Shown here: positions 5,450-40,376 of the stretch, in pieces
Position numbering within the stretch: the first letter of the stretch is position 1
Layout of the letters: each line of letters begins with the position of its first letter
Assembly (NCBI GenBank): GCA_963797345.1
Contig: CAWCPO010000013.1
Span: 18,830-82,829, forward strand
Origin: an uncultured Acidobacteriota bacterium
Lineage (GTDB): Bacteria > Acidobacteriota > Terriglobia > Acidiferrales > UBA7541
DNA length: 64,000 bases
Direction of reading: 5' to 3'
Program-made: the position numbers and the translations under genes
The notes under the pieces: generated by a model
The model's database searches: none
The model's input: only the letters and a program-made list of their open reading frames with translations
What the model was told of the DNA's origin: nothing

Positions 5450-6616
5450 ACCTGCGCCGCGCGTCATCACGCCCGCGACGCGCAGGTCCGGCGTGAGCGC
5501 GACGAGGTCGGCATCCGATCCCACGGCGAGGATGCCTTTCTTTCCCGCCAAGCCGAGGCGCCGAGCTGGCAGCACCGTGGCCATGCGCACGGCGTCCGCC
5601 AGCGGCACTCCCAAGGCCACTACATAGCGCAAGGCGCGATCTAGGGTCAGCGTGCTGCCCGCCAGCTTTCCTTCCGCGTTCCGGCAGACTCCGTCCTTAA
5701 CAGTGACTTCGAAATTCCCGAGGCGATAATTGCCATCGGGCATTCCCGTGGCTGCGATGCCGTCGGATACCAGGAGCACGGTGCCGAAACCCTTGGCGGC
5801 GAGCAGGACTTGGATCGCTGGTCCGGCAACATGGACGCCATCGGCGATGATTTCAGCGGTGACTTCCGGGTCGGTGAGGATGGCGCCGATTACTCCGGGA
5901 TCGCGGTGGGAAAAGGGGCGCATGGCGTTGAACGTGTGCACGGCGTGGCGAGCGCCGGCTTGAATGGAGGCCCTCGATTGCTCGTAGTCCGCGTCGGTGT
6001 GTCCCATGGCAACCACCAGGCCGGCGGCAACCGCAAACTCGATGAAGGGAATGGCGCCAGGGAGTTCGGGCGCGGTAGTCAAAATTTTCACCAGGCCGTC
6101 CGAGGCATCGAGAAATTTGCTCAGGATTTCGGTCGAGGGTTTCTGGAGGGCGCCCGGCGGATGCACGCCCCGGCGCACCTTGCTGATGAACGGCCCCTCG
6201 AGGTGCATCCCCAGGATCTCGGCGGCAAGGTGCGGATTCTCCACCGGCTTTTCGCGGCTGCGTATATAGCGCGTGATTCCCTGGAGGCTTCGGCAGGTCT
6301 CCTCGACCGGCGCCGTGACGGTGGTGGCGACGAGGGAGGTGGTCCCATGGCGCGCGACCGTGGACGCGATGCGGTCCAGCGCGCGCGCGTTCGCTTCCAT
6401 CACGTCGTGGCCGCCGGCGCCGTGAATGTGAACGTCCACGAAGCCCGGCACGACGGTCAAACCCGCGGCGGAGTAATCGGCCGCGCCGGGCGGCACGCGA
6501 ACCTCGTCGCGATGGCCGATCGCGGCGATCCGGCCGGCCTCCACGAGAATCACGCCGTCGCTAATTTCCTCGAGCGGCGTCAGGATGCGGCTGGCATAAA
6601 TCGCGGTTGTGGGCAT
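5441..6616 (-). CDS. nagA: N-acetylglucosamine-6-phosphate deacetylase
   Basis: 391 aa. FVDVHIHGAGGHDVM metal-binding motif, GHTDA, and HTFNAM blocks of the NagA amidohydrolase family. Confidence 0.9.
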   Translation of the reverse strand: MPTTAIYASRILTPLEEISDGVILVEAGRIAAIGHRDEVRVPPGAADYSAAGLTVVPGFVDVHIHGAGGHDVMEANARALDRIASTVARHGTTSLVATTVTAPVEETCRSLQGITRYIRSREKPVENPHLAAEILGMHLEGPFISKVRRGVHPPGALQKPSTEILSKFLDASDGLVKILTTAPELPGAIPFIEFAVAAGLVVAMGHTDADYEQSRASIQAGARHAVHTFNAMRPFSHRDPGVIGAILTDPEVTAEIIADGVHVAGPAIQVLLAAKGFGTVLLVSDGIAATGMPDGNYRLGNFEVTVKDGVCRNAEGKLAGSTLTLDRALRYVVALGVPLADAVRMATVLPARRLGLAGKKGILAVGSDADLVALTPDLRVAGVMTRGAGLV

Positions 6617-6850
6617 GGTCTGGCCGAGCTGCCTGGGAATTGTACTTGGTCATCCTACCGGAACGGAACTGTAAACAGAAATGGGTGCTGGGTTGATTTG
6701 AATTTATGTGTACCAATGCAGAAGCGTAGTGCTGCAAAACCAGGAGACCGCAAGCATCCCAAAACCAACTATAAACGCCGCCGCTTCTCCGCTACAATCG
6801 TGTGTCACTGCAAGCCATCTCATAAATGGCCTGATGGCCTGTCCTGCCGA

Positions 6851-6908
6851 CTTCAGGGGTTAAAACCCGTGAGTTGTGGGGGCTTTTCGGCACGGCTGAA
6901 GCCGTGCC
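6851..6908. repeat. bipartite REP-like intergenic element: CTTCAGGGGTTAAAACCC box plus GGCACGGC-TGAA-GCCGTGCC hairpin
   Basis: Perfect 8-bp stem with a 4-nt loop at 6889-6908. A second copy with the same architecture and spacing is at 23234-23292. Confidence 0.5.
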
Positions 6909-6958
6909 CTGACACAAAGCATTTATGAGAGGGTTATAGCGAGCCGGAGGAAAACGGA

Positions 6959-7129
6959 ATGGCCAACGAAAAGCGGTACATCGCGCAAAAGCGTCAGAGG
7001 CGGCGGCGCAAGACCGCCAAGGCGAAAATGAAACTTTACGAGCAGGGGAAAATGCCACACGACAAACTTCCCTCCCTCGCGAAAAGGTTTCTCAGCCGCA
7101 AGATGCGGGCGCTGAAAAAAGCGGAATAA
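6959..7129 (+). CDS. small highly basic hypothetical protein (56 aa)
   Basis: ATG-to-TAA ORF below the track cutoff (MANEKRYIAQKRQRRRRKTAKAK...). No recognisable family; coding status uncertain. Confidence 0.35.
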   Translation: MANEKRYIAQKRQRRRRKTAKAKMKLYEQGKMPHDKLPSLAKRFLSRKMRALKKAE

Positions 7130-7166
7130 AACAAAAAAACGGGCGCCCCGGATTCCCGGGACGCCC
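7130..7166 (-). terminator. intrinsic terminator for the 7220..8011 gene
   Basis: GGGCGCCCCGG/CCGGGACGCCC stem with one mismatch and a 4-nt loop. On the minus strand it is followed by GTTTTTTTGTT. Confidence 0.6.
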
Positions 7167-7219
7167 GCTGGCCGTCTCCTCGCGCCGGCCCCCGCCAGGG
7201 CCGCGACGGGAGGGATTGT

Positions 7220-8011
7220 TCACATGCCCGAGTTGTCAGCCGCCTGCGCCGGAGCGGACTTCGGAACGCTCAGATAGCCCGTGATCTTGTTCTTCCCGAC
7301 CTGGTTCACAGTGAACTCGTAGGGTGCCGAGTGGCCGGAATTCGTGGGGAAGAAGTAGATGGGTTCGTCCACCGACCGGTTGTTCTTATCGAACCGCTGA
7401 TCGTTGACGTATACAGCCACGGAGTAGAGGTTCCTCTTGGGGTTCACGCTGCGGAGTTCGACCATCAGGTCGCCCACCTTTGTGCGCTGGCCCTTCTGGG
7501 TGATCGTGAACTCGTAATAATCGCGCTCGCCCATGCGGCGGAGTTCTTCGATCTGGTCATGGTTCTTGGCGATGAGGGTGCCGAACTCGCCCTTGGCCAT
7601 CTCCAAGCTGCTCTTAGTCGAGTCGAGGTCCGTCTTCACGGAATCGACATCGGTGCCAAGTTTATTCACGTCGTCCGTGCTGGCTTTGGTGGCCAATTGC
7701 CCGGCAACGTTGTTCTGCAGGTCCGCGAGTTGCTTGGCGTCGTCCGCTTTGATCTGAGCGGCTGTCCGATGCAGCTCGGTCGCCGACAGCTTCATCTTGT
7801 CCGCCACCACGCTCAATTCGCCCTGGAGCTGCGCGTTGGCGTCCTCCGCCTTCGCCAGCCGCTGGCTCAGCGTGTCTTCGTCCTGCTTGAATTGCTGCGT
7901 CTGCGCCGTCAGCGTCTGCGCGAGTGAACTCGATCGGTTCGATGCCGACCAGCCAACGCCCAAAGCGATCAGCGTTACCACCGCGACCCAATTCCTGCTA
8001 CCCCTATCCAC
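7220..8011 (-). CDS. membrane-anchored coiled-coil hypothetical protein
   Basis: 263 aa. N-terminal TM (NWVAVVTLIALGVGW), a long heptad-like Q/L/A/D/K-rich region, and a beta-rich C-terminal domain. No family recognised. Confidence 0.7.
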   Translation of the reverse strand: MDRGSRNWVAVVTLIALGVGWSASNRSSSLAQTLTAQTQQFKQDEDTLSQRLAKAEDANAQLQGELSVVADKMKLSATELHRTAAQIKADDAKQLADLQNNVAGQLATKASTDDVNKLGTDVDSVKTDLDSTKSSLEMAKGEFGTLIAKNHDQIEELRRMGERDYYEFTITQKGQRTKVGDLMVELRSVNPKRNLYSVAVYVNDQRFDKNNRSVDEPIYFFPTNSGHSAPYEFTVNQVGKNKITGYLSVPKSAPAQAADNSGM

Positions 8012-8303: not shown

Positions 8304-9141
8304 TTACCTGGTGATCGTCATATTCTGCAGTGCGGCAATGCGCGCCGCGAGGGGTGGATGCGTGCTGAACAGCTTGGCAAAGAATGCGCGAGCGCTCATG
8401 GGCGCCACAATGCACAGGGCAGCCGTGGAAGGCGGAATGTCCGAAGGGATTCTTTGGTTGTAGGCCCCGAGCTTTTCGAGCGCGCGAATTAGGCCGTAGG
8501 GATGGCCGACCATTCTTGCGCCCGAAGCGTCCGCCTGATATTCGCGCTGGCGCGAGATGCCGAAGCTGAAGCAGCAGCGCGCCGAGGGGCGCGAAAATCA
8601 GCGTCAAGAGGGCGATCAATCCGCCGCTGTTGCGGTTGCGACCACCGCCACCGAACCAGAAGCCCATGCGTGCAACCCATGTGACCGCTCCGGCGATGGT
8701 GGCCGCGATGGAGGAGGTGAGAATGTCGTAGTTGCGTACGTGCGAAAGCTCATGGGCAATCACGCCTTCGAGTTCTTCGTCGTCCATCAACTGGATCAGT
8801 CCCTGCGTGACGGCGACCGACGCATGGCTGGGGTTGCGGCCGGTGGCGAAGGCGTTCGGCGCCGGCTGCGGGATCATGTAAAGCTTGGGCATCGGCAGAT
8901 TGGCTTTGGCGGCGAGACGCTCCATCACGGCATAGAGCCGCGGCGATTGCTCCCGGCTGATGGGCTGCGCATGGCTCGACATGAGCGCAATCTTGTCCGA
9001 GAAGAAATAGGCTGTCCCGTTCATGAGAATGGCGAAGACCAGGGCGAGAGTCATGCCGCTGCGCCCGCCGAATGCGTCGCCGATGAAGAGAAGCAACAAC
9101 GTCAAAGCTGTGAGCAAAAATGCCGTTTTGAGTGTCTTCAT
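8304..9141 (-). pseudogene. htpX: HtpX zinc metalloprotease (M48) interrupted by a 1-nt insertion near 8556-8560
   Basis: The N-terminal 194 aa, including HELSHVRNYD, are in the frame of ORF 8200..9141. The conserved C-terminus (GISRQREYQADASGARMVGHPYGLIRALEKL...HPPLAARIAAL) continues in the frame of ORF 8304..8513. Confidence 0.85.
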
Positions 9142-9163
9142 TGTCCGTGTCCCCGGCGCCTTA

Positions 9164-11776
9164 TCAGGCGGCGCCCGCCTTCATTGTATCGCGTTTGAAC
9201 TGCATCTCGCCGGTCTTTGGATCGGCGTCCACAATCACGTTGTCGCCCGGCTTTACCTCGCCATCGAGAATCTTCAGAGCCAGGGGGTCCTGAATCAGCT
9301 TTTGAATCGCCCGCTTCATCGGGCGCGCTCCATAAGCCGGATCGTACCCCTCGCGTAGGAGCAGCGTCTTGGCCGCCGGCGTCAGGCGGAGAGTGACCTG
9401 CTTTTCGGCGAGCAGTTTCATCACATGCTGCAATTGCATGTCAACAATCCGCTCGATCTGGTCCTTGCCCAGCGGTTTGAACAGCACGATATCGTCAATG
9501 CGGTTCAAGAACTCCGGGCGGAAGAGCTCCCGGAGCGCGGCCATGGCCTCGTCACGCGCCTTCTTGGGGTCTTTATCGGCAAGCTCGAAGATGGCCGAGG
9601 AGCCGGCGTTCGAGGTCATGACAATCACGGCGTTGCGGAAATCCACTGTGTGGCCCTTGCCGTCCGTCAGCCGGCCGTCTTCTAGAATCTGCAGCAACAC
9701 ATTGAATACGTCCGGATGGGCCTTCTCGATTTCATCCAGCAGGACGACGGAGTAAGGACGCCGGCGAACCTGCTCGGTCAACTGGCCGCCCTCTTCGTAA
9801 CCCACGTATCCGGGAGGCGCGCCGATCATGCGCGCCACGGAGTGCTTCTCCATGTACTCGGACATATCGAGGCGAATGATGGCGCGCTCATCGTCAAACA
9901 AAAATTCGGCGAGGGCGCGCGCAAGCTCCGTCTTGCCCACTCCCGTGGGCCCGAGGAAAAGGAATGAGCCGATGGGCCGGTTGGGATCGCTCAACCCGGA
10001 CCGGCTGCGGCGAATGGCATTGGCCACGCTGGCGAGCGCCTCGTCCTGGCCGACCACGCGCTGGCGCAGACGCTCCTCCATGTGCACGAGCTTTTCGATT
10101 TCGCCCTCGAGCAGCCGCCCCACCGGAATGCCCGTCCACTTGCTGACGATTTTCGCGATTTCTTCCTCGCCTACTTCTTCCTTCAGCATGGGGTGGTCTT
10201 TTTGGAGTTCGGCGAGCTTGTCCTGCGCCTTCTTCAATTCCTTTTCCGCGGCGGAGAGTTTTCCATAGCGGATTTCGGCCACGCGCGAAAGGTCGCCCGC
10301 GCGCTCGAAGCGCTGCTCTTCGGCCTTCAGGCGCTCGATTTCCTCTTTCTGCTTGCGGATGCGGCCGATGGCGTCCTTCTCCGTCTGCCAGTGCGCTTTC
10401 AGGCCGTTCGATTGCTCGCGCAGTGTGGCGAGTTCTTTTTCGATTTGAGAGAGTCGCGCGCGCGAGTGCTCATCCGATTCCTTGCGCAGGGCTTGCCGCT
10501 CGATTTCCAGTTGCATGATGCGGCGTTCGATTTCGTCAATTTCGGCGGGCAGGGAATCAATCTCCATGCGCAGGCCAGCGGCGGCTTCGTCCACCAAGTC
10601 GATTGCCTTGTCGGGGAGAAAGCGGTCCGTGATATAGCGCTGCGAAAGCATCGCGGCGGCCACGATGGCGGAGTCCTTGATGCGCACGCCGTGGTGCACC
10701 TCATAACGTTCCTTCAAGCCGCGCAGGATGGCGATGGTGTCCTCGATGGAGGGCTCGCCCACGAAGACGGGCTGGAAGCGCCGCTCGAGCGCCGGGTCCT
10801 TCTCGATGTACTTGCGGTATTCATTGAGCGTGGTGGCGCCGATGGCGCGCAGCTCGCCCCGCGCCAGCGCTGGCTTCAGCATGTTGGAGGCGTCCATCGC
10901 GCCTTCCGCCGCGCCCGCGCCCACGAGCGTGTGCAGCTCGTCTATGAACAGAATTACCTGGCCCTCGGATTCGGTGACTTCCTTGAGCAGGGCCTTCAGG
11001 CGATCCTCAAATTCGCCGCGATATTTTGCGCCCGCGACCATGGCTGCGAGGTCGAGCGCCACGAGGCGCTTGGGCTTGAGGACTTCCGGCACATCCCCGG
11101 AGACGATCCGCTGCGCGAGCCCTTCGACGATGGCCGTCTTGCCCACGCCCGGCTCGCCGATGAGCACGGGATTGTTCTTGGTGCGGCGCGCCAGAATCTG
11201 CATCACGCGGCGGATCTCCTCGTCGCGCCCAATGACCGGATCGAGCTTGCCGCGCCGCGCCGCTTCGGTCAGGTCGCGCGCATACTGATCGAGCGCGCGG
11301 TAGGTGGCTTCGGGATTCTGTGATGTGACGCGATGGCTTCCGCGGATGGCCGTCATGGCCTGTAGGATGGCGTCGTGCGTGGCCCCATGGCGCGCTAGGA
11401 GCTGGCCGGCCGGGTCGCGGTCCGCTGCGGCGATGGCCAGCAGAATGTGTTCCGTCGAGACGTACTCGTCCTTGAGGCGCTGCGCTTCGTCGAAGGCGCG
11501 CTCAAGCACGTCGTTCGAGGCCGGGCTCAGGTACTGTTGGGAGACGCCGGAAACCTTCGGCAGCCGCTCAATTTGCTTCTCGATCTCGCTGGCTAGTGCG
11601 GCGGGAGGAGCTCCCAGCTTTTCGAGCAGCGGCGGGACCACCCCATCTCCCTGCGAGACGAGCGCCCACAGCAGATGCAGCGGCTCGATTTGCTGCTGCC
11701 CGGAGCGCGCGCCCATATCCTGCGCCGCTTGGAGCGCTTCTTGCGCCTTTACCGTAAGCTTGTCGAATCGCAGCAC
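9164..11776 (-). CDS. clpB: ATP-dependent chaperone/disaggregase ClpB
   Basis: 870 aa. Two AAA+ modules ([15 protein letters not shown]; [15 protein letters not shown]) and a coiled-coil middle domain. GTG start. Lies 22 nt upstream of htpX. Confidence 0.98.
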
Positions 11777-25740: not shown

Positions 25741-27788
<2,048 letters not shown>

Positions 27789-28807: not shown

Positions 28808-29104
28808 TCCACTGTGCCGGCGAAACTTCTGCAGCGCCAATTGCGACCTACGTGCAAGGAACTCGGTTTGCCACGAATTACGTGGCATGCCTTGCGCCAC
28901 TGCCACGCGACGTTGCTGGACGTTGTAGGAGCACCGCTGGGCACCGTGCAGGCGCTTTTAGGCCACGCATCGCCGGAAGTTACACGGCAAATTTATCTGC
29001 ACGCGATTCCGGAGGAACAGCGCAGAGCGGTTGAAAAGGTCGAGAAGCTCCTTATTGGACCCAAATGGACCCAAGTTTCGGGAGCCGAGCAAAGGCCGAA
29101 TTAG
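28808..29104 (+). pseudogene. 3' fragment of a tyrosine integrase, identical to the 3' end of the gene at 58281..59449
   Basis: Encodes ...ITWHALRHCHATLL...LLGHASPEVTRQIYLH (HxxR and catalytic Tyr) but lacks the N-terminal 290 or so codons. Part of a 368-bp exact repeat. Confidence 0.9.
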
Positions 29105-29175
29105 CAAGTGATTGAAATGCAGGGAGATGTTGGTGGACGTGGCCGGGATCGAACCGGCGACCCCCTGCTTGCAAA
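28808..29175. repeat. 368-bp direct repeat, copy 1 (integrase 3' end plus tRNA-Ala half)
   Basis: Base-for-base identical on visual alignment to 59153..59520 (offset 30,345). Confidence 0.9.
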
Positions 29176-29289
29176 CAAGGTGGGGATAAACCACTAAATG
29201 CTTTGTCTGGTGTCGCTTACACGGAAAATCAACGAGATTCTCGCTCTCTCAAACGTCCCGAAGTTGTCCCGAACATTCCCGTATTAGAT
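29131..29289 (-). repeat. att core (a) plus right arm. The core 29131-29175 is the 3' half of tRNA-Ala(TGC), anticodon loop to CCA.
   Basis: Minus strand reads TTTGCAA-GCAGG-GGGTC-GCCGG-TTCGATC-CCGGC-CACGTCC-A-CCA (U70 fits the Ala G3:U70 identity). The 5' side cannot form the anticodon or acceptor stems. The 159 bp are 97.5% identical to 31519-31677. Confidence 0.8.
29255..29273 (+). promoter_or_regulatory. tandem GTCCCGAA-gtt-GTCCCGAA (candidate arm-type recombinase site)
   Basis: Lies 80 nt from core (a). The same motif is at 31643-31661 and a variant (GTTCCCAA-gtt-GTTCCCGAA) at 59607-59626, 87 nt from core (c). Confidence 0.4.
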
Positions 29290-29604: not shown

Positions 29605-30249
29605 ATGGACACTCCGCTCGAAAAGAGCAACAATCCGTGCACGATAGACTACGAATCTCTACTCAAGGAAGTGAGGGCGGATTCTTACGAGGCCGCAGTT
29701 TCATTCCTTATGGAGAACCTCCCCTTCGTTTGGCGCGACTCCTACCTCGAAATGATGCCAAGAGATACCAAGATTTTTAGATTTCAGTATGGAACATTCG
29801 AGTACATCTACGACGACTATGCCTCATTGGAAGCAACCGGAGCCGTGCCTTACGATCCCATAATCGAAGCAAGACTCGTCGGCGTTTCCGGGTGTTCGAC
29901 CCCCAAAGAAACTAAACGGGACGATTTTCGCCTCAGGGGATGGGTCGGTCCGACAGAAAAAGCCTTTGGCAGGGCCTGGGACAAAGGTCATTTCATGGCG
30001 CATTCGATTGGCGGGGCGGCTGACCAACTTGAAGTAAACGTCTTTGTCCAACGCCGCGACTTAAATCGCGGCTGGTCAGAAGCGGGTCGGCGGTATCGAG
30101 AAATGGAGAAGTACTGCAAATACCATCCGGGGACCTTCTGCTTCAGCCGCCCCTTGTATCTCGATCAAACAGCCAAGCCCGCATTCCTGGAATTTGGGAT
30201 TCTCAAGAATGTCCACGAGCTATCGGTCGAGTGCTTCGATAATCGATAG
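29605..30249 (+). CDS. DNA/RNA non-specific endonuclease (Endonuclease_NS_2-like) with an unknown 120-aa N-terminal domain
   Basis: WDKGHFMAHSIGGAADQLEVNVFVQRRDLNRGWSEAGRRYREMEKY...RPLYLDQTAKPAFLEFGI matches the D-x-GH-x-A-x-x-GG ... N ... Q ... N-R-G ... E pattern of this nuclease family. No signal peptide or delivery domain. Confidence 0.7.
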   Translation: MDTPLEKSNNPCTIDYESLLKEVRADSYEAAVSFLMENLPFVWRDSYLEMMPRDTKIFRFQYGTFEYIYDDYASLEATGAVPYDPIIEARLVGVSGCSTPKETKRDDFRLRGWVGPTEKAFGRAWDKGHFMAHSIGGAADQLEVNVFVQRRDLNRGWSEAGRRYREMEKYCKYHPGTFCFSRPLYLDQTAKPAFLEFGILKNVHELSVECFDNR

Positions 30250-30289
30250 TTGGGACACCTTCTCTGGGCACGAAGACCTAGGAGGCGCG

Positions 30290-31060
30290 TTGAGTGTAAG
30301 GGTCTATGTAGGCGGACTTCCATATTTAACTACCTCGGACGAGCTGCGGGATGCCGCCCGACAGATTAGGCCCGAGGCCACCGCAGAGATAGTCGTTGAC
30401 AAAATGACTGGCAGATCAAGAGCCTTCGGCTTTTGGACAGTGGCAGACGTATCGGCCGCAGAAGAGCTAATCGAAGCTTATAACGGCAAGGATCTTGGCG
30501 GTCGACGCTTGACGGTCGGTCACGCGAAACCATTTGAACCTCGACATCCCTTAAGGGCAGCTCTCCTAGAACCCTTGGCCGAACTCTCGGTAGAGTCTCC
30601 CATAGTTCGGGTCAGTGAGCAGGTGTGCGAAGATCTGATCGAGTTCTTCGCACGGCATCCCGACGAGATGAGGCTAATGCCACCCCGCCGATTTGAAGAG
30701 CTGATTGCGGACCTGTGGCAGAGGTTCGGCTATGAGGTCGAGCTTACGAAACAAACCCGCGACGGTGGAACGGATGTAATCGCCATCAAAAACTCAGAAG
30801 TCCATACCCGCTTCCTTATACAGTGCAAACGGCTGGCTCCGGGAAAGAAGGTCTCGGTCCAGCCAGTCAGGGAGCTCTTGGGTGTTAAGCAGGACATGGG
30901 TGGATCGAAGGCGGTGTTGGCCACAACTGTCTACTTCACACGTGACGCCCAGATGTTTATAGATCAGCATTGCTGGGAATTAGAAGGAAGAGACTACGAT
31001 GGCGTAGTTGCTTGGCTCCGGCAGGCGACCCAACCACAAAGTCAGACTGGCCTCAAGTAG
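30290..31060 (+). CDS. RRM (RNA recognition motif) fused to an Mrr_cat PD-(D/E)xK restriction-endonuclease domain
   Basis: TTG start 5 nt after AGGAGG. RNP2 VYVGGL and RNP1 RAFGFWTV. C-terminal half RRFEELIADLWQRFGYEVELTKQTRDGGTDVIAI...FLIQCKR is the Mrr_cat pattern. Confidence 0.7.
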   Translation: MSVRVYVGGLPYLTTSDELRDAARQIRPEATAEIVVDKMTGRSRAFGFWTVADVSAAEELIEAYNGKDLGGRRLTVGHAKPFEPRHPLRAALLEPLAELSVESPIVRVSEQVCEDLIEFFARHPDEMRLMPPRRFEELIADLWQRFGYEVELTKQTRDGGTDVIAIKNSEVHTRFLIQCKRLAPGKKVSVQPVRELLGVKQDMGGSKAVLATTVYFTRDAQMFIDQHCWELEGRDYDGVVAWLRQATQPQSQTGLK

Positions 31061-31420: not shown

Positions 31421-31480
31421 CGTGGGCGTGAGGACATTCGAACTCCCGACCCCCTGTGTGAATAGCAGGTGGTTACGCGG
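31421..31480 (-). other. degenerate second tRNA-3'-half-like remnant
   Basis: Minus strand ACAGGGGGTCGGGAGTTCGAATGTCCTCACGCCCACGA aligns position-for-position with the Ala core. The T-stem is mispaired and there is no CCA. Confidence 0.3.
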
Positions 31481-31518
31481 GAAAACCTCCGACGGCATCG
31501 CATTGAAATGATAGTGGT

Positions 31519-31677
31519 TGGTGGACGTGGCCGGGATCGAACCGGCGACCCCCTGCTTGCAAACAAGGTGGGGATAAACCACTAAATGCTTTGTCTGGTG
31601 TCGCTTACACGGAAAATCAACGAGATTCTCGCTATCTCAAATGTCCCGAAGTTGTCCCGAGCATTCCGGTATTAGAT
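31519..31677 (-). repeat. att core (b) 31519-31563 plus right arm
   Basis: The core is identical to (a) and (c). The arm has 4 mismatches in 159 nt against 29131-29289. Confidence 0.8.
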
Positions 31678-32029: not shown

Positions 32030-32950
32030 CTATGTTTGGCTGTTGTATTCGGGCGGTCCATCCAACTGAAAGAACGGCTCTTTTTTAGTGGGTATCCACC
32101 GTCCGTATTGGCGGCAAATCTTGGTTTCGTGTTCAACTCCGGGTATAAAAATATCTTCGTATTTAAGGATGCCGCACAACCACAGAGATTTCGTTTGGTT
32201 CCGAAGAACGGCGTCCCAATCCTCGCGTCCCATAATGCCCCCGTTGTTTTTCAGTTCGGCAACTTGAGGCAGCGGGTCACCTTGCGGAATTATTTGTGGT
32301 GCGAGTATCTCAGAAATGCTGTAAACGCTGTGATCGGGCGCTTGATTCAGGCTTGTTATATAGAGTCCGAATCGAAAAGCCGTCAGCTTTCCCACGGTTT
32401 TACCGAAGTTTTTGAAGCTGAAAAAAGCAAAGATTCTTTGCGGAATCTCCGGGGAAACGCAATGTATTTCTATCGGGATCGCGTCGTCAAACAAAAACCA
32501 AGCTCGTTCGCTGTTTATTATGGCTTGAGCATTCAAGAGGGCTGCGTCTGCTGTGATCTTTTGGAGGGGCAGGCTGTCACGCATCGCCTTCGTGGCTTCG
32601 GCGGTTTTTTCAGCCTGATACCAAATAACCCCCAAAGTACAAATCAGAGCAAGAGCCTGTGCGATACCGACATAGACGAGCCACCATTCGGCCTTTACGG
32701 TTTTATTTTTATCGGCTGTTTCTTGTTGGAGATCGGCGGCGCGTTCTTGTTCGTTTTTGGTTATCGCGGCCAACATCACGTTAAGCGCCGCGTCCTCGGC
32801 GGCTTTTTGGTTGTTATCGCAATTTGTGGTGAATTGAGCGTTGGCACGGCTCTCTTTTTTGGCGACCCCTGCGCGTGGTGGCCCAGAGCTTTGAGAGACA
32901 GATACGATCCACATACCCACAGTCAGGGCTGCGAGGGCAATCTGCTTCAT
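32030..32950 (-). CDS. hypothetical membrane protein (signal/anchor, second TM, 190-aa C-terminal domain)
   Basis: 306 aa. MKQIALAALTVGMWIVSV leader and a WWLVYVGIAQALALICTLGVIWY TM. No family recognised. Confidence 0.6.
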   Translation of the reverse strand: MKQIALAALTVGMWIVSVSQSSGPPRAGVAKKESRANAQFTTNCDNNQKAAEDAALNVMLAAITKNEQERAADLQQETADKNKTVKAEWWLVYVGIAQALALICTLGVIWYQAEKTAEATKAMRDSLPLQKITADAALLNAQAIINSERAWFLFDDAIPIEIHCVSPEIPQRIFAFFSFKNFGKTVGKLTAFRFGLYITSLNQAPDHSVYSISEILAPQIIPQGDPLPQVAELKNNGGIMGREDWDAVLRNQTKSLWLCGILKYEDIFIPGVEHETKICRQYGRWIPTKKEPFFQLDGPPEYNSQT

Positions 32951-33250: not shown

Positions 33251-33481
33251 GTGATCAAATCGGCACAAAATTATCCCATTTCCAGCGTCCTCGACACCGA
33301 GGCCAAGGTCAGGTTTGTTGTGCCCAAGTACCAGAGGGAATACATCTGGAGAAAAACGCACTGGGAGGACCTCTTTGACGACGTCCAAGCTAATCCGGAA
33401 GGACATTTCCTGGGTTCCATCATTTGCATCAATCGCGCCGAGGACGCGTACAAGGTGGTTCGAGTCCGCAGGCGGGAGTGA
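33251..33481 (+). pseudogene. N-terminal fragment of a DUF262 (GmrSD-type) protein
   Basis: FVVPKYQREYIWRKTHWEDLFDD...GHFLGSIICI is the DUF262 N-terminal signature. The ORF ends after 76 aa, whereas full-length members are several hundred aa. Confidence 0.6.
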
Positions 33482-34959
33482 TGGTTCGGGAGACGCTCAA
33501 TGCTGGCTCCACGAATGCGTATGTATTTTACGACAACAATATCCTTTTCTATGACCGTCCGAGCACGGGGGCCGGCACCTCAAACCTGGGGACTATATCC
33601 GAGACACTCCCTTACTGGGTGAAGCTGGTGCGGAGCGGGAACAGTTTCAGTGGATATACGTCTCCAGACGGGGTGAACTGGACGCAAGTTGGGTCCACAC
33701 AAACGGTCACAATGGCGCAGAACGTAAGCATCGGCTTTGCTGTGAGCAGCGCGAACAACGCGAGTATTGCCGCCGCCACTTTCGACTCCGTTTCAGTCAC
33801 GTCCACACTTGCACCGCCGGTTGTCACAAGTCTCTCTCCTATGAGTGGCATTGCGGGCATTTCCGTAACGATTGCCGGGTCCAACTTTGGGGCGATGCAA
33901 GGGAATAATGGCGTGCAATTCAACGGGGTGACGGCAGCCGTTTTGAGTTGGAGTGACACGAGCATCGTAGCGACCGTTCCCAACCCGGCCACGACTGGAC
34001 CCGTGGTGGTTATTGTGAATGGGCAAAGCAGCAACGGAGTGATATTTACCGCTCTCACGACCGGCACTCTTTCCGGGGCGATCACCGCATCTGGGTCTGG
34101 CACGGCTATCAGCGGGGCCCAGATTCAAGCCACGCAATTGGGTGAGATAAAGGCCACAACTCAGTCGGACAGTAACGGCAACTATGCGTTCTCGAACCTC
34201 AATGCCGGCACGTACGATATTCAGGTCTCGGCCGCTGGATTCGGAACTTCACTCAATAGTGCCGTCTCTGTTCCTGTGGGTATGACGACAACTCTGAATG
34301 TCAGTCTGTCCCCGCCCGGCACAATCTCCGGAACCGTGACTCGGGCGGATGGAGTAACGCCGATTCCCGGAGCAATCGTACAGGCGTTTGTCGGTGAAAT
34401 TTCGGCGGCTCCAGTCACCACGGATTCGAACGGGAACTACAGCATCGCAGGCTTGAATGCCGGGACCTATAGGGTCCAAGCCTTGGCCAACGGCTATGTG
34501 GCCTCGACTCAAACGGAGTCGGTGACCGGGAATTCCACGACGACAGCGAACTTCTCACTCCAAACGCAAGGGACAGGGACAATCAGCTACGTCTACGACG
34601 CGCTTGGGCGATTAGTGGGAGTTATCAATCCGAACGGCGACACGGTCGTATATAACTACGATGCCGTGGGAAACTTGGCATCAATCTCTCGGCAAAGTTC
34701 CGCCCAGCTTTCCATCATCACCTTTACGCCCTCCAGTGGCATTGTTGGATCTGCCGTAACAATCTACGGAACGGGCTTCAGCAGCACGACAAGTCAGAAC
34801 ACAGTGAATTTTAACGGTACTGCCGCCACTGTTCAGTCAGCGACTACAACCCAGTTAGTGGTGACGGTGCCCACGGGGGCGACAACAGGCCCCATCAGTG
34901 TTACCACTCCCGCAGGATCGGTAACTAGCAGCGCTTCATTCACCGTACAGACCCAGTGA
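33424..34959 (+). CDS. 5'-truncated surface-type protein: partial lectin/LamG-like domain, IPT/TIG, three CarboxypepD_reg-like domains, one YD repeat, IPT/TIG
   Basis: Begins mid-domain (GVMVRETLNAGSTNAYVF...NSFSGYTSPDGVNWTQVG) with no signal peptide. Repeated SDSNGNY.F.NLNAGTY modules. YVYDALGRLVGVINPNGDTVVYNYDAVGNL. Confidence 0.65.
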   Translation: MHQSRRGRVQGGSSPQAGVMVRETLNAGSTNAYVFYDNNILFYDRPSTGAGTSNLGTISETLPYWVKLVRSGNSFSGYTSPDGVNWTQVGSTQTVTMAQNVSIGFAVSSANNASIAAATFDSVSVTSTLAPPVVTSLSPMSGIAGISVTIAGSNFGAMQGNNGVQFNGVTAAVLSWSDTSIVATVPNPATTGPVVVIVNGQSSNGVIFTALTTGTLSGAITASGSGTAISGAQIQATQLGEIKATTQSDSNGNYAFSNLNAGTYDIQVSAAGFGTSLNSAVSVPVGMTTTLNVSLSPPGTISGTVTRADGVTPIPGAIVQAFVGEISAAPVTTDSNGNYSIAGLNAGTYRVQALANGYVASTQTESVTGNSTTTANFSLQTQGTGTISYVYDALGRLVGVINPNGDTVVYNYDAVGNLASISRQSSAQLSIITFTPSSGIVGSAVTIYGTGFSSTTSQNTVNFNGTAATVQSATTTQLVVTVPTGATTGPISVTTPAGSVTSSASFTVQTQ

Positions 34960-34976
34960 AAGGAACGGAGACAGCG

Positions 34977-37900
34977 ATGAAGCACCGCCGGCATTCTGAC
35001 TCACTCTTGGCTGTGGGGCTGATTTTGAGCTTGGGGATGCTCTTATGCCCGGCCTCATCCCCAGGGAAAACAAGATCGCTTCGCCCCAGAAAGGCCCAGG
35101 CCAATCTCTCTTCTCTTATTCTCGCCGGCCAAACGGCGACACTTCTTCCCAACGGCGAGTGGCTGTTGGTTGGTGGCGAAGGGCCACAGGGCCCTGTGGC
35201 AACGGCGGCGATTCGTGATCCACAGACAGGTGCGGCGACGGTACTCCCTAGTGGACTCCATCAGCCTCGCGCGTGGCATACAGCCACAGTACTACCGAAT
35301 GGGACGATTCTAATTTTCGGCGGCGTGGGCGCAAACGGCTCCGTGCAAACGATTCCTGAACTTTTTGACCCGATGACACAAAAGTTTGCAAGTCTGCCGC
35401 CCATGGGATTGACTCCACGTGCCTATCACACAGCCACGCTTCTCACGGATGGCCGGGTGCTTATTGTCGGCGGAATTTCGGACAGCGGGGAAACGCTGGG
35501 ATCAATTGAGGCGTGGAACTTTCAAACGAACACCGCCGCGAATTTGCCTCCGGGTCTCCTCGTACCTCGCAGGGGGCACACGGCAACACTGCTCGCAGAC
35601 GGGACGGTCCTCCTCTGGGGAGGATACGGTGCCACTGGTGCCGAGCTGAATTTCGGCGAAGTATTCGACCCCGTGACACAGCGCACGACAATGGAGACTG
35701 CCACTGCGTCAACACAGAACACTCAACCGCCTCAACTCGAAGCATCGTTGCCGCCAGATGGGGCAACAAATGTATCCGTAAACACGCTCATTGCGTTGCG
35801 CTTCTCGAAGCCTCTTGCCGTCGTAACCGTAAATACTCAGACCGTTGTTCTGTCTGGCCCGCAGGGACCCGTGGACGCCCAGGTGGTTCCTGCGGAAGGC
35901 GGGATGCTGGCGTTTATCACTCCCGATGCTGTCATGGTTCCCGGCACAACCTATACGATTGCGCTGTCCGGTCTCACCGATGGCGCCAATGCGCTGAATG
36001 ATGCGGCCATCTCATTTACGACGGCCGGTACGCCTCCTGCTGACACGGGAGCCGTTCCCGGAACAGCGTCAGGGGCGGACCCGGATGACACCGGGAGCCA
36101 GTCATTCAATTCTCCGTGGCGAAAGATGCCACCGCTGGAAGCCCCGCCAGGTGTGACTGCAATTTCAGGGCAAGCTCTTCGATTGAATGGTCAGCCACTC
36201 GAAAATGTGACTCTTTCAATTGGAGGCCAATCGGCAACAACGGATGATACGGGCCGATTCCTGCTTGCGAACATTGGTTCAGGCCATCAGGTGATGCTCA
36301 TTGATGGCAGCACCGCTGACAAGGGCGACAGAACCTATGGATTATTTGAAGATGGCGTGAATATCGTCGCGGGGCAAACGTACACCTTGCCCTATACGAT
36401 TTGGATGACAAGGATCGACACGCAAGATGCGGTGACGATTCCCTCGCCCACAGTGGCGCAAGACACGGTGATCACGACGCCGCGGCTGCCGGGGCTCGAA
36501 CTACACCTGGCCGCCAACACCGTGATTTACGATCACCAGTGGAACGTGGCTCGCACAATCAGCATCACGCCGGTTCCGCTCGACAAGCCCCCATTCCCAT
36601 TGCCCCAAGGCGTCCAGGTTCCGATCTATTTCACGATTCAGCCGGGCGGCGGTTACATACAGGTGGGCGGGACTGGTAATTCGTACACGGGAGCAAGGCT
36701 GTTCTACCCGAACACGTATCAAGAAAAACCGGGAACGATCTTTGATTTCTGGAATTACGACGCGAAGCAGAAAGGGTGGTACGTCTATGGCGAAGGCAAA
36801 GTCAGCCAAGACGGACTCAGCGTAGTCCCGAACCCTGGCGTCGAGATATATGAGTTCACTGGAGCAATGGTCGGGGGTCCGTCCGCTGCCAAGGCAATCG
36901 GTCCACCGGCGCCTTCGCCACCGCACGGCGGAGAACCGGTCGACTTATCATCAGGCCTCTTCACGTACAACAAGACCGATATGGTGTTGCCGGATGTTAT
37001 TCCTCTGGTGGTGCAGCGAACTTATACGACGAACGATGGGCTGTCACGGTCATTCGGCATCGGGGCGATGCAGGATTACGACATGTTTATGGTCGGAGAT
37101 ACCTTCCCGTACACCTATCAGGAATTGTGCCTTCCGGATGGATCGAGGATTCATTTTTATCGTATATCGTCGGGCACAAGTTATTCCGATGCCGTGTACG
37201 CTCATACCTCCACGAATACGAAATGGTATGGCGCCACACTGACCTATAATGCCGGCGCGGTTTTCGCCGCTACCAATTGGGTTCTTACCACGCGCGATGG
37301 GACGAGCTATTACTTCCCGGATGGGCTTGGACAAACCAACCCCGGCAAAATGGCTTTGCTCGGCATTCGCGACCGCTATGGCAATACGGTTGCGATTAAC
37401 CGCGATTCGAATGGAAACATCACCTCTCTTGTTTCGCCGAACAGACGCACGATCGCGTTCTTTCATGATTCGAGCAACCGCATCACTCAGGCGCTGGACA
37501 ATACCGGCCGTACTGTCAGTTATACCTACGATTCGAGTGGACGGCTTTCGACCGTCACGGACGCGAACGGCGGCGTCACCACCTACACGTACGATTCCAA
37601 CAACAACATGCTGACGATCAAGGACGCTCGCGGGATCACCTACCTCACGAACCAGTACGACAGCAACGGTCGAGTGATTACGCAGACGCTCGCCGACGAA
37701 AGCACGTATCAATTTGCGTGGACGCCCGCAACAAGCACGGTGCTAACCAGTTTTGTCGATGGAAATCAGCCCACGGGCGGTTCGTCGGCGGCTGTCCTGA
37801 GCTTTCGCTCCTGCGCCACTTGCTCGGAAGGATACCTGCCTCTGATTTCGCAGGTGAATGTCACCGATCCGCGCGGGATCGTCCGGCAAGTGCAGTTCGG

Positions 37901-40376
37901 GCCGGCCGGGCAGATGACGAGCGATACGTATGCGCTGGGCAAGCCCGAGCAGCAGACATTCACTTACGCCTATTACGCCGATAATCTCCTCCAATCGGTG
38001 ACGGATCAGCTCGGGCGCACCACGAACTATTCCTACGACGCAAACGGAAATGCGACGAGCATCAACCGGACGGCCGGAAGCTTGTCGGCAACCACCTCGT
38101 TCAGTTACGACCCGGCGTTCAGCCAGCTTACGAGTTTGACCGACCCCCTGAATAACACGACCTCCTTTGCAATCGACGGCAGCGGAAACACGACAGGCAT
38201 TACGGACCCGCTGGGCCATCAGACGACGTTCACTTTCGATTCCGAAGGGCGGCCCTTGACGGCCACGGACCCGCTCAGCCATTCCACCCACTTTGCTTAC
38301 GACCCAAGCAGCGATCTCGTATCCATCACCGACCCGCTCAGCCGCACCACGTCTCGTTCGTTCGATCCCGTTGGCCGGCTCATCAGTGTGGCGAATCCGC
38401 TGAGCCAGAAGACGCAGTATGCCTATGATCCCTTGAATCAGGTTACCCAGGTGACGGACGCGCTCGGGAATGCGACGTCATTCGCCTATGACCCCAACGG
38501 CAACCTCACGGGCGTGACGGATGCCAATAGCCACGCGACGAGCTATACGTACGATTCGATGGATCGGCTCGCCACCCGCGCCGACCCGCTCAGCCGCGGC
38601 GAGAGTTATCAGTACGATGGCAACGGCAATCTGACCCAATTCACGGACCGCCGTGGCGAGGCCACAACCTACACCTACGACAATCTGGACCGCCGCGCTT
38701 TCGCAGGATTCAACACGCAGGCGGGGCCGAGCTACGAAAGCACGATCAGCTACACCTACGACGTAGGCAACCGGCTGACGCAAGCCGTGGATTCGATCAC
38801 CGGGACGATCGCGCGCGTGTATGACGGCCTCGATCGGCTGACTTCGGAAACCACGCCGCAGGGCGGCGTCAGCTACGGCTACGACATTGCCAGCCGCAGA
38901 ACCAGCATGACCGTCGCGGGCCAGCCGGCCGTGAATTATTCATACGACAACGCGAGCCGGTTGACGCAGATCGCGCAGGGCGCATCGGCGGTATCCTTTG
39001 TGTACGATTCGGCCAGCCGGCGCACGTCGCTGACTCTGCCGAATGGCGTGGCCATGAGCTACAGCTACGACAACGCGTCGCAACTCACCGGCATCAATTA
39101 CACCCTCGGCCAGAACTCGCTCGGGAATTTAGCATATACCTATGATCTCGCCGGTCGGCGGACGAGTGAGGGCGGGAGCTACGCAGCGGCCAATCTGCCG
39201 CAGCCTGTCTCCCTCACGGCGTACGACGCCGCAAACGAGTTGACGGAGTGGGGCGCGGCCACACCGGTGTACGACGCGAATGGGAACACGCTCAGCGACG
39301 GAACGAATAGCTACGCCTGGAACGGGCGCAATCAGCTCGCGTCAATGAATTCGAGTGCGGAAAGCTTCCAGTACGATCCCCTCGGCCGGCGCGTGGCGAA
39401 GACTGTCCTATTTGGCACGACGAATTACCTCTACGACGGCGCAAACCCCGTCCAGGAACTCGCAGGCACGACGCCTACGGCAAACTTGCTGACTGGCCTG
39501 GGAATCGACGAACGCTTTACCAGAACAGATTCGAGCGCGACGGCGAATTTCCTCACCGATGCGCTTGGCAGCACTTTGGCGCTGACGGACCCAAGCGGCA
39601 ACACCCTCGCCTCCTACACCTACGAGCCTTTCGGCAACACGACTGTCACTGGCAGTTCTGCAAGCACCTACCAATTCACCGGACGAGAAAACGACGGCAC
39701 TGGCGTGTACTTCTACAGGGCTCGTTACTATTCGCCGACATTGCAGAGGTTCATGAGCGAAGACCCCTTAGGCATGCAGGGCAGCGGACCTAATCTTTAT
39801 GCATACGCTGGCAATAACCCTATCAATTGGACCGATCCAGGGGGCATGGTGTCGCCCTTCACCTTCTATCGCCGCCCCCCTAACCCTCTCCCCGGCAGAA
39901 AGGACAATGGGTCGCCAGGTCTGGGAAGACAGATCTTTGGGTACCTCTGGAATAACTTGACGAATGGTTGCGGCAAGAGCCTGCAGAATATCTGCCAAGG
40001 TGGTATTCCTCCCGCTCCATTCGAATTGGCCGCTGGTGCTGAGGCCGCGGCGGAAGGGCTTGCTGAAGGATCGAGCGCGGCAGCTCCTGATTTCCTTGGG
40101 CAAGAGAGCGGACCATCAATCCCAGTACCCGAGGGCGCAGCTGGGCCGTATCCTACCGATAACCTCGCCGGAATTCAATATAATGACGGGTCGGGTGGAA
40201 ATGGGCTGGCAGGCAATGTCACGGATGTGAGGGTGATGGATTCGACTGCGGACTATCCGAACGGGTACGTGAACTACGGAAGCCAACAGGCAAACGGCGG
40301 ATGGCAAAGCGTGAATCCCTATACAGGCCAGTCAGTGCCGCCGAGCAGTCCTTGGTGGCACATATCGCCTAAGTGA
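34977..40376 (+). CDS. Rhs/YD-repeat polymorphic toxin with Sec signal, Kelch repeats, an Ig-like domain, the Rhs shell, and a 175-aa C-terminal toxin (39849..40373)
   Basis: ATG at 34977 after GGAACGGAG. MKHRRHSDSLLAVGLILSLGMLLCPASS leader. At least 4 Kelch-like LxDGxVLxxGG units. GEPVDLSSGLFTY plug. Dozens of YD repeats. YRARYYSPTLQRFMSEDP...NPINWTDPGGM demarcation motif. Confidence 0.95.
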   Translation: MKHRRHSDSLLAVGLILSLGMLLCPASSPGKTRSLRPRKAQANLSSLILAGQTATLLPNGEWLLVGGEGPQGPVATAAIRDPQTGAATVLPSGLHQPRAWHTATVLPNGTILIFGGVGANGSVQTIPELFDPMTQKFASLPPMGLTPRAYHTATLLTDGRVLIVGGISDSGETLGSIEAWNFQTNTAANLPPGLLVPRRGHTATLLADGTVLLWGGYGATGAELNFGEVFDPVTQRTTMETATASTQNTQPPQLEASLPPDGATNVSVNTLIALRFSKPLAVVTVNTQTVVLSGPQGPVDAQVVPAEGGMLAFITPDAVMVPGTTYTIALSGLTDGANALNDAAISFTTAGTPPADTGAVPGTASGADPDDTGSQSFNSPWRKMPPLEAPPGVTAISGQALRLNGQPLENVTLSIGGQSATTDDTGRFLLANIGSGHQVMLIDGSTADKGDRTYGLFEDGVNIVAGQTYTLPYTIWMTRIDTQDAVTIPSPTVAQDTVITTPRLPGLELHLAANTVIYDHQWNVARTISITPVPLDKPPFPLPQGVQVPIYFTIQPGGGYIQVGGTGNSYTGARLFYPNTYQEKPGTIFDFWNYDAKQKGWYVYGEGKVSQDGLSVVPNPGVEIYEFTGAMVGGPSAAKAIGPPAPSPPHGGEPVDLSSGLFTYNKTDMVLPDVIPLVVQRTYTTNDGLSRSFGIGAMQDYDMFMVGDTFPYTYQELCLPDGSRIHFYRISSGTSYSDAVYAHTSTNTKWYGATLTYNAGAVFAATNWVLTTRDGTSYYFPDGLGQTNPGKMALLGIRDRYGNTVAINRDSNGNITSLVSPNRRTIAFFHDSSNRITQALDNTGRTVSYTYDSSGRLSTVTDANGGVTTYTYDSNNNMLTIKDARGITYLTNQYDSNGRVITQTLADESTYQFAWTPATSTVLTSFVDGNQPTGGSSAAVLSFRSCATCSEGYLPLISQVNVTDPRGIVRQVQFGPAGQMTSDTYALGKPEQQTFTYAYYADNLLQSVTDQLGRTTNYSYDANGNATSINRTAGSLSATTSFSYDPAFSQLTSLTDPLNNTTSFAIDGSGNTTGITDPLGHQTTFTFDSEGRPLTATDPLSHSTHFAYDPSSDLVSITDPLSRTTSRSFDPVGRLISVANPLSQKTQYAYDPLNQVTQVTDALGNATSFAYDPNGNLTGVTDANSHATSYTYDSMDRLATRADPLSRGESYQYDGNGNLTQFTDRRGEATTYTYDNLDRRAFAGFNTQAGPSYESTISYTYDVGNRLTQAVDSITGTIARVYDGLDRLTSETTPQGGVSYGYDIASRRTSMTVAGQPAVNYSYDNASRLTQIAQGASAVSFVYDSASRRTSLTLPNGVAMSYSYDNASQLTGINYTLGQNSLGNLAYTYDLAGRRTSEGGSYAAANLPQPVSLTAYDAANELTEWGAATPVYDANGNTLSDGTNSYAWNGRNQLASMNSSAESFQYDPLGRRVAKTVLFGTTNYLYDGANPVQELAGTTPTANLLTGLGIDERFTRTDSSATANFLTDALGSTLALTDPSGNTLASYTYEPFGNTTVTGSSASTYQFTGRENDGTGVYFYRARYYSPTLQRFMSEDPLGMQGSGPNLYAYAGNNPINWTDPGGMVSPFTFYRRPPNPLPGRKDNGSPGLGRQIFGYLWNNLTNGCGKSLQNICQGGIPPAPFELAAGAEAAAEGLAEGSSAAAPDFLGQESGPSIPVPEGAAGPYPTDNLAGIQYNDGSGGNGLAGNVTDVRVMDSTADYPNGYVNYGSQQANGGWQSVNPYTGQSVPPSSPWWHISPK

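Follow-up and report, generated by a model that had tools for sequence, protein, structure and literature searches.

The 64,000-nucleotide stretch of DNA analysed here (the window; contig CAWCPO010000013.1 of assembly GCA_963797345.1, positions 18,830 to 82,829 of the forward strand) comes from an uncultured Acidobacteriota bacterium and contains a gene whose product joins a canonical RNA recognition motif (RRM) to an Mrr-type restriction nuclease module. This protein, which corresponds to database protein P0001, is referred to below as RRM-Mrr. Its gene stands directly behind a co-oriented gene for a second putative nuclease, and the two lie together in a low-GC island, accompanied by what appear to be remnants of an integrative element (Table 1).

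An RNA recognition motif fused to an Mrr-type nuclease

An initial annotation of the locus, made from the letters of the DNA, had assigned to the gene a TTG start codon behind a perfect AGGAGG, and direct reading of the sequence agrees with both. A longer in-frame open reading frame (ORF) beginning at position 30194 was considered and rejected. Because that version overlaps the upstream gene, and because orthologues of 45–78% identity (P0002 and P0003 among them) share an N-terminus beginning at M/V-S-V-K-V-Y-V-G-G-L, the TTG start is to be preferred. Scans for promoters and terminators gave nothing useful above shuffled expectation.

The N-terminal half of the protein is a canonical RNP-type RRM. 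The Pfam RRM_1 profile (PF00076) matches residues 5–74 over profile positions 1–69 of 70 with 49.8 bits against a cut-off of 20.7 (E = 3e-13), and searching with a family profile brings up hundreds of RRMs of known structure, the best at E = 1e-37. The RNP2 (VYVGGL) and RNP1 (RAFGFWTV) motifs are those quoted in the initial annotation. An AlphaFold2 model calculated from a 68-sequence alignment (mean predicted local distance difference test score, pLDDT, 87.2; predicted template-modelling score, pTM, 0.59) places strands at residues 3–8, 31–36, 43–51 and 75–78 and helices at 16–24 and 54–64, with pLDDT values of 94–97 in this domain. Foldseek comparison with the PDB superposed residues 1–80 on the RRMs of RBM39, HuR, TIA-1 and plant GR-RBP1 with root-mean-square deviations of 1.0–1.5 Å, and template-modelling scores against RBM39, HuR and TIA-1 reached 0.85–0.92. 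The aromatic residues of the RNP motifs, Y6, F46 and F48 in the window protein, are largely retained among 27 fusion proteins, with Y or F at position 6 in 25, F, W or Y at position 46 in 24, and F or Y at position 48 in 22.

NCBIfam RRM models matched below threshold throughout, the bacterial ‘Rbp_regulator’ domain being the best of them, and the match to NF058537 was partial. The closest non-fused relative of the window RRM is a stand-alone protein of 95 residues, which is 56% identical and has the ‘...GRRLTVNEARP’ tail in common with it. Its length fits the statement in the initial annotation that bacterial RRMs usually exist as stand-alone proteins of about 90 residues, as do published accounts (PMC12265689). 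A homologue search with the RRM and linker alone returned just three proteins, a low yield that reflects the word index used.

Between the two domains lies a linker with pLDDT values below 50 at residues 85–95 and 98–102, and across the family the gap between the matches of hidden Markov models (HMMs) for the RRM and the Mrr module ranges from 16 to 76 residues. The C-terminal half carries the motifs FEELIADLWQRFGYEV, DGGTDVIAI and IQCKR, in which the initial annotation had seen an Mrr_cat pattern; Pfam Mrr_cat (PF04471) matches residues 130–226 with 82.7 bits against a cut-off of 21 (E = 2.7e-23), so both domains score well above their Pfam gathering cut-offs. In the AlphaFold2 model, three helices (residues 104–145) precede an alpha/beta core reaching to residue 247, and the best Foldseek matches to this half were the modification-dependent restriction enzymes MspJI (4f0q, 4f0p) and AspBHI (4oc8), the predicted structure thus combining an RRM with an MspJI/AspBHI-like nuclease half. 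When the nuclease half alone was compared by sequence with the PDB, no match emerged; the link to MspJI and AspBHI comes from the fold search alone, and no two-domain match was obtained in the BFVD viral structure library.

The acidic and lysine residues of the PD-(D/E)xK site are invariant or nearly so among 223 Mrr modules (Table 1). Position 178 is E in 199 of these modules and Q in 22; the window protein has the QxK form, as do Escherichia coli Mrr and MspJI. With its catalytic constellation intact, the Mrr half is apparently an active nuclease. Neither Mrr_N nor SRA domains were matched in the RRM-Mrr protein, whose N-terminal domain is the RRM. Searches against PADLOC defence-system profiles gave no full-length match, and matches were limited to the nuclease region (the candidate system PDC-S02, positions 178–290 of 334; type IV mREase_IV, positions 410–509 of 544; and the nuclease tail of ZorD).

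In a codon-level comparison with a 76%-identical orthologue, the ratio of non-synonymous to synonymous substitution rates (dN/dS) was lowest in the Mrr module (0.14), intermediate in the RRM (0.29) and highest in the linker (0.56). Across pairs these ratios ranged from 0.15 to 0.4 for the RRM and from 0.07 to 0.14 for the Mrr module, and in deeper pairs the dN of the RRM was about twice that of the nuclease. Judged by these values, the gene is not a chance ORF, and purifying selection maintains both domains, the RRM evolving faster, as expected for a recognition module.

Table 1 Features of the RRM-Mrr locus and its surroundings, in window coordinates.
Feature	Position	Strand	Basis or remark
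kdpB, first part	25741-26661	+	overlaps second part in a different frame
kdpB, second part	26537-27757	+	P-type ATPase motif DKTGTIT
Tyrosine integrase, C-terminal fragment	28814..29104	+	Pfam Phage_integrase E=1.4e-10, positions 110-169/172, ~60 residues; island edge
Left 161-nt direct repeat	29129..29289	.	tmRNA 3'-end match weak, E=0.0067, below gathering
EndoG/Serratia-nuclease-like His-Me finger gene	29605..30249	+	214 aa; co-oriented, 40 nt before RRM-Mrr gene
Shine-Dalgarno AGGAGG	30280..30285	+	4-nt spacer to TTG; read from sequence
RRM-Mrr_cat gene	30290..31060	+	256 aa; TTG start, TAG stop; P0001
TTG start codon	30290-30292	+	
RRM domain, residues 1-85	30290..30544	+	Pfam RRM_1, AlphaFold2 model, Foldseek, aromatic conservation
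RNP2, V5-Y-V-G-G-L10	30302-30319	+	
RNP1, R44-A-F-G-F-W-T-V51	30419-30442	+	
Flexible linker, residues 86-103	30545..30598	+	low pLDDT, variable length, dN/dS above that of both domains
Mrr-type nuclease module, residues 104-247	30599..31030	+	three-helix N-terminal extension and PD-(D/E)xK core; Pfam, Foldseek
E136 codon	30695..30697	+	helix alpha-1 acidic residue of PD-(D/E)xK site; invariant, 223/223 modules
D158-G-G-T-D162	30761..30775	+	Mrr 'DGGxD' motif, D162 = PD aspartate; D158 and D162 each 223/223
Q178-C-K180	30821..30829	+	(Q/E)xK catalytic motif; K180 in 221/223 modules
TAG stop codon	31058-31060	+	
Degenerate T-arm-like piece	31438-31472		between RRM-Mrr gene and right repeat
Right 161-nt direct repeat	31517..31677	.	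98% identical to left copy
306-aa ORF	32030-32950	-	no Pfam or PADLOC match; N-terminus signal/transmembrane-like
GmrSD_N (DUF262) type IV restriction fragment, truncated	33251..33481	+	76 aa; Pfam E=3.8e-13, positions 4-60/199
TIG, CarboxypepD_reg and RHS-repeat protein gene	33424-34959	+	511 aa; 4-nt overlap with next gene
RHS/YD-repeat protein gene	34956-40376	+	1806 aa

A rare fusion on a widely shared nuclease module

A word-indexed search of 5.8 billion protein clusters with the RRM-Mrr protein returned 481 matches. The top 17, at 45–100% identity, are RRM-Mrr proteins, two of them N-terminally truncated; all are metagenomic or come from metagenome-assembled genomes (MAGs), and most form single-member clusters. 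At 50% identity, an exhaustive HMMER scan across 1.84 billion representatives yielded 12 or more proteins covering the whole family profile. Of ten new representatives tested, nine had both Pfam RRM_1 and Mrr_cat, the tenth (P0290) having no RRM_1 match. Full-length RRM-Mrr proteins were found neither in 185,579 species-representative genomes of GTDB nor in 50,697 GenBank phage records or 72,556 plasmid records, where the nuclease module alone does match, and a full-text literature search yielded no account of any fusion between an RRM and an Mrr or restriction endonuclease domain. The combination of RRM and Mrr_cat, which the initial annotation had singled out as unusual, is thus neither common nor characterised, with about 16 clusters at 90% identity and no published description found. 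RRM-Mrr is a rare but diversified, so far undescribed family. Among its members, the RRMs of P0290 and P0298 are degenerate, with loss of RNP aromatic residues, and the metagenomic protein P0321 (335 residues) carries two tandem RRMs ahead of the Mrr module.

In contrast to the complete fusion, the Mrr module itself (residues ~100–250) recurs in hundreds of other proteins, which have the same helical extension and core at 50–60% identity, with identical catalytic residues, and differ in the domain attached to it. Among the best 120 of the 481 matches, counted as clusters at 90% identity, the N-terminal partner is an RRM in 16, a TIR domain in 29, a sigma-70 region 4 helix-turn-helix (HTH) in 13, a MerR HTH in three and a dUTPase in one; in a further 58, many of them about 180 residues long, no other domain was detected. 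PADLOC profiles also match the TIR or HTH parts of these sister proteins. The Mrr module is a shuffled cassette, and such domain shuffling is typical of conflict systems. A neighbour-joining tree built from 223 Mrr modules unites the window protein and 15 further RRM fusions in a single pure clade and scatters 13 other, more divergent RRM fusions over six places; it carries no support values and is as compatible with a single old fusion as with several independent ones.

RRM-Mrr genes are carried by phages and integrative elements

Inspection of related loci showed that RRM-Mrr genes are cargo of phages and integrative elements, all of the contexts seen being mobile or defence-like. On L001, a lambda-like viral contig that also appears in IMG/VR as L018, one copy (P0007; positions 6513–7310) stands as a single insert between the gene for the tail tube and those for the tail chaperone and tape measure; about 730 nucleotides without a convincing gene follow it. 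Another (P0013, on L022) lies between replication genes (PrimPol, DUF3987 and HTH_17) and a tyrosine integrase. P0011 is found among a methylase, SLFN_AlbA_2, a Gp49/HTH toxin-antitoxin pair and a Tn3 transposase, P0009 adjoins an HTH/ImmA-IrrE pair and RadC, and P0010 is near a CAP12-PCTIR TIR gene. On three contigs (L002, L003 and L004), the gene for P0003 is convergent with an Mrr_cat-TIR gene directly downstream. The product of this neighbour (L002, positions 8898–9806, minus strand) has Mrr_cat at its N-terminus and TIR at its C-terminus, and its Mrr module is 44% identical to that of P0003, so that two differently equipped copies of one nuclease chassis stand side by side.

No gene, methyltransferases included, is conserved beside RRM-Mrr across the ten distinct contexts; an N6_N4_Mtase gene lies 3 kb away at one locus. 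Since no such partner is conserved, RRM-Mrr would act alone. This mobile cargo, together with the swapping of N-terminal domains and the decayed low-GC island described below, is the most informative evidence on the family, and was missed by the initial annotation.

A decayed integrative element in the window

The KdpA protein encoded in the window shares at least 90% of its residues with proteins from Candidatus Acidiferrales MAGs. Downstream of kdpA, kdpB and kdpC, the GC content of the window drops from 0.60–0.64 to 0.49–0.55 over about 28.8–33.6 kb. At the edge of this island lies a tyrosine integrase gene of which just the C-terminal ~60 residues remain, and the island’s own integrase is therefore dead. 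The cassette of two genes, for the EndoG-like and the RRM-Mrr protein, is flanked by two direct repeats that start exactly at ...GGTTCGATCCCGGCCACGTCCACCA, which on the minus strand reads as the 3' end of a tRNA/tmRNA-like T-arm and acceptor with CCA. A permissive Rfam search of the repeats matched the 3' end of tmRNA at E values of 0.001–0.007, with 12–14 bits against a gathering score of 47. Intact tRNA or tmRNA genes were found nowhere in the window by ARAGORN or by Rfam at gathering thresholds, and none of the related loci contains the repeat sequence. The repeats are probably remnants of attachment (att) sites left by successive integrations into a tRNA or tmRNA gene, an origin that we propose tentatively.

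Taken as a whole, the island appears to have been acquired horizontally, and the two-gene cassette to be what survives of the cargo of a decayed integrative element, in a small graveyard of defence genes to which the truncated GmrSD_N fragment also belongs.

The upstream EndoG-like gene is a facultative neighbour

The protein encoded directly upstream of RRM-Mrr gives a weak match to Pfam Endonuclea_NS_2, for which a homologue on L029 passes the cut-off with 29.5 bits. Its AlphaFold2 model (pLDDT 81) matches EXOG, EndoG, NucA, EsaD and the Serratia nuclease-like fold, and the D-K-G-H...N motif of the His-Me finger is invariant in its family, which comprises more than 580 highly conserved, unannotated clusters, mostly without an RRM-Mrr gene. 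The protein is cytoplasmic and has no obvious inhibitor gene. The contexts of the family are variable and mobile-looking, with Prok-E2/Prok_Ub genes, SLFN_AlbA_2 and Gp49/HTH.

A homologue of 85% identity precedes the P0003 gene across the same 40-nucleotide gap, and at the P0008 locus the upstream gene is 46% identical to that of the window where RRM-Mrr is 60% identical; P0002 and P0004 probably share the arrangement, as judged solely from matching contig sizes. An obligatory operon was considered and rejected, since the partner is not conserved across RRM-Mrr loci: six of them, including those of P0006, P0007, P0010, P0011 and P0013, have no such gene, and P0009 has no upstream sequence to judge by. 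Conversely, the closest relatives of the window’s EndoG-like protein (64–80% identity) stand without an RRM-Mrr gene. The EndoG-like gene is a frequent, facultative neighbour and not an obligatory partner.

Comparison with known systems

RRM-Mrr resembles Mrr, MspJI and AspBHI in being a single polypeptide without a cognate methylase and in its order of reader, linker and Mrr-type PD-(D/E)xK nuclease. The known Mrr-type nucleases find their targets with a domain that reads modified duplex DNA, a winged helix in Mrr and an SRA-like domain in MspJI, whereas RRM-Mrr has at this place an RRM, a reader for single strands, and is much shorter at 256 residues. A reader domain of this kind is unprecedented for a solitary nuclease of the Mrr type. 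Canonical RRM proteins of bacteria are small, few in number and little understood, and to our knowledge none of them is coupled to an enzyme.

The stand-alone bacterial RRMs (cyanobacterial Rbp, RbpB, AB-Elavl; NF058537) share their fold and both RNP motifs (RNP1 and RNP2) with the window RRM; they are, however, non-enzymatic, whereas the window RRM forms the N-terminal part of a nuclease. Those characterised, Bacteroides RbpB, Acinetobacter AB-Elavl and RtmR, are RNA binders or regulators of about 90–100 residues without enzymatic activity (PMC12265689). Conceptually, the closest published case is the RRM-fold sensor of the BREX-related DUF499 ATPases, whose C-terminal RRM/ferredoxin domain has been proposed to recognise invader nucleic acids (PMC12839542). 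The RRM folds of DUF499 and of Cas7/RAMP proteins are divergent, ferredoxin-like, devoid of RNP motifs and part of multi-gene systems, unlike RRM-Mrr, in which a sequence-canonical RNP-type RRM is fused straight to the effector. The likeness to NA-iREase1 and PDC-S02 consists of HMM matches over the nuclease core, covering just the C-terminal third of the PDC-S02 profile; RRM-Mrr differs from both in keeping its catalytic residues and in having no NACHT domain.

Proposed function and alternatives

We propose that RRM-Mrr is a stand-alone, mobile-element-borne defence DNase of the Mrr type (type IV-restriction-like) with the RRM as its reader, a reading to which we give an even chance of being right. 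The RRM would take the place of the N-terminal reader of modified duplex DNA, such as the winged helix of Mrr or the SRA domain of MspJI. On a tether of 16–76 residues, it would bind single strands, most likely RNA and possibly single-stranded DNA. The C-terminal module would cleave through its PD-(D/E)xK site (E136, D162 and Q178-x-K180), and we take its substrate to be DNA because its relatives are DNA restriction enzymes and its sister proteins carry duplex-DNA-binding HTH domains. Binding by the RRM could recruit the nuclease to single strands that lie beside duplex, such as nascent transcripts, R-loops or the replication and rolling-circle intermediates of an invader, or it could act as a switch, with the nuclease free in one state and bound to RNA in the other. 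The most likely role would be single-gene defence of the host or of a resident mobile element against phages or other elements. We infer the RNA ligand, the coupling of RRM and nuclease and the defence phenotype from the comparisons above. The nucleic-acid-triggered or R-loop/transcript-guided cleavage suggested by the initial annotation from domain content is plausible; an RRM recognises just a few single-stranded nucleotides and brings no guide with it, so that ‘guided’ was overstated.

Several observations weigh against a defence DNase. The evidence for the defence role is genomic context, and most of the contigs are short; in the window, the cassette is surrounded by gene fragments, and its expression there is putative. 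The RRM is of a general Rbp type, close to the 56%-identical stand-alone protein, and gives no obvious distinction of self from non-self, and an active DNase tethered to cellular RNA should endanger the host unless it is regulated. AlphaFold predicts no confident contact between the domains across the disordered linker, leaving allosteric coupling without structural support. A phage-borne copy could serve the phage and not the host. Finally, the nuclease core gives a marginal match to Pfam NA-iREase1 (PF22722; 30.1 bits against a cut-off of 27), a family of NACHT-associated ‘inactive’ restriction endonucleases. We rejected the inactive label, as the catalytic residues are invariant and NACHT domains were found neither in the RRM-Mrr protein nor in its neighbours; with the E...D...(E/Q)xK site intact, the name is a misnomer for the window protein.

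The danger to the host would be met if RRM-Mrr were instead a guard of the abortive-infection kind, in which host RNA bound to the RRM keeps the nuclease sequestered or monomeric until a phage shuts off or degrades host RNA, whereupon the freed nuclease oligomerises and degrades DNA indiscriminately and the infected cell dies. Such a switch would explain how a low-specificity RRM could be regulated safely without a partner gene, none being conserved, and TIR domains, typical effectors of abortive infection, occur in the sister proteins. The Mrr and MspJI relatives are regulated by their oligomeric state, and dissociation of the Mrr tetramer is the subject of a published paper (PMC5435990). The idea is nevertheless purely speculative, no inter-domain contact being predicted, and we consider it unlikely. 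An RNase, in which the RRM delivers RNA to the PD-(D/E)xK site for cleavage of RNA or of the RNA strand of a hybrid, for instance phage transcripts, would suit an RRM of the RNA-binding type, and a minority of PD-(D/E)xK enzymes do cleave RNA; yet the closest relatives of the catalytic module in both sequence and structure are all DNA restriction enzymes, and the fusion of the same module to duplex-DNA-binding HTH domains in sister proteins likewise speaks for DNA, which makes this alternative distinctly improbable.

We grant a similarly low probability to the view that the protein serves its element, through degradation of host or competitor DNA, superinfection exclusion or addiction, or that it works as a pair with the EndoG-like protein. 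One copy does sit inside a phage structural operon and others adjoin integrases or Tn3; morons at that phage position, however, commonly protect the lysogen, and no antitoxin-like partner of the kind that an addiction toxin needs is conserved. Pairing would account for the EndoG-like gene ahead of RRM-Mrr in the window and at the P0003 and P0008 loci, and is opposed by the loci at which either gene occurs without the other. Least probable by far is a housekeeping enzyme for R-loops, transcription-replication conflicts or DNA repair. The domain logic, single-strand or RNA binding joined to a structure-tolerant nuclease, would fit; against it stand the absence of the fusion from the species-representative genomes, its patchy metagenomic distribution, the low-GC island and mobile-element contexts, and the fast evolution of the RRM, and among the loci inspected no stable vertical inheritance with conserved chromosomal synteny was seen.

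If RRM-Mrr is a defence DNase with a single-strand reader, recognition of single strands or RNA can replace the reading of modifications in a restriction-like enzyme. A more specific form, which we regard as rather unlikely, is a protein-only immune sensor-effector in which the RRM reads RNA, either invader transcripts or the loss of host RNA, and licenses the attached DNase. This would be the first immunity function for a canonical bacterial RRM, self and non-self would be told apart, by a logic new to restriction-fold nucleases, through the state of RNA and not through DNA modification or sequence, and the RRM would be one plug-in among several, alongside TIR and HTH domains, on a common Mrr chassis. 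At 256 residues, the protein offers a tractable model for the control of a DNase by an RNA-binding module, and it could provide a compact nuclease, dependent on RNA or single-stranded DNA, of interest to biotechnology. Beyond RRM-Mrr itself, the Mrr module and its swappable RRM, TIR, HTH and dUTPase partners represent an uncharacterised, apparently large family of candidate single-gene defence proteins.

Flanking genes

On the left of the island, kdpB appears to be split into two overlapping ORFs in different frames (Table 1), which points to a frameshift or a pseudogene, or else to a mistake in the assembly. Directly after the island, the two adjoining RHS-repeat genes make up a locus of the polymorphic-toxin type.

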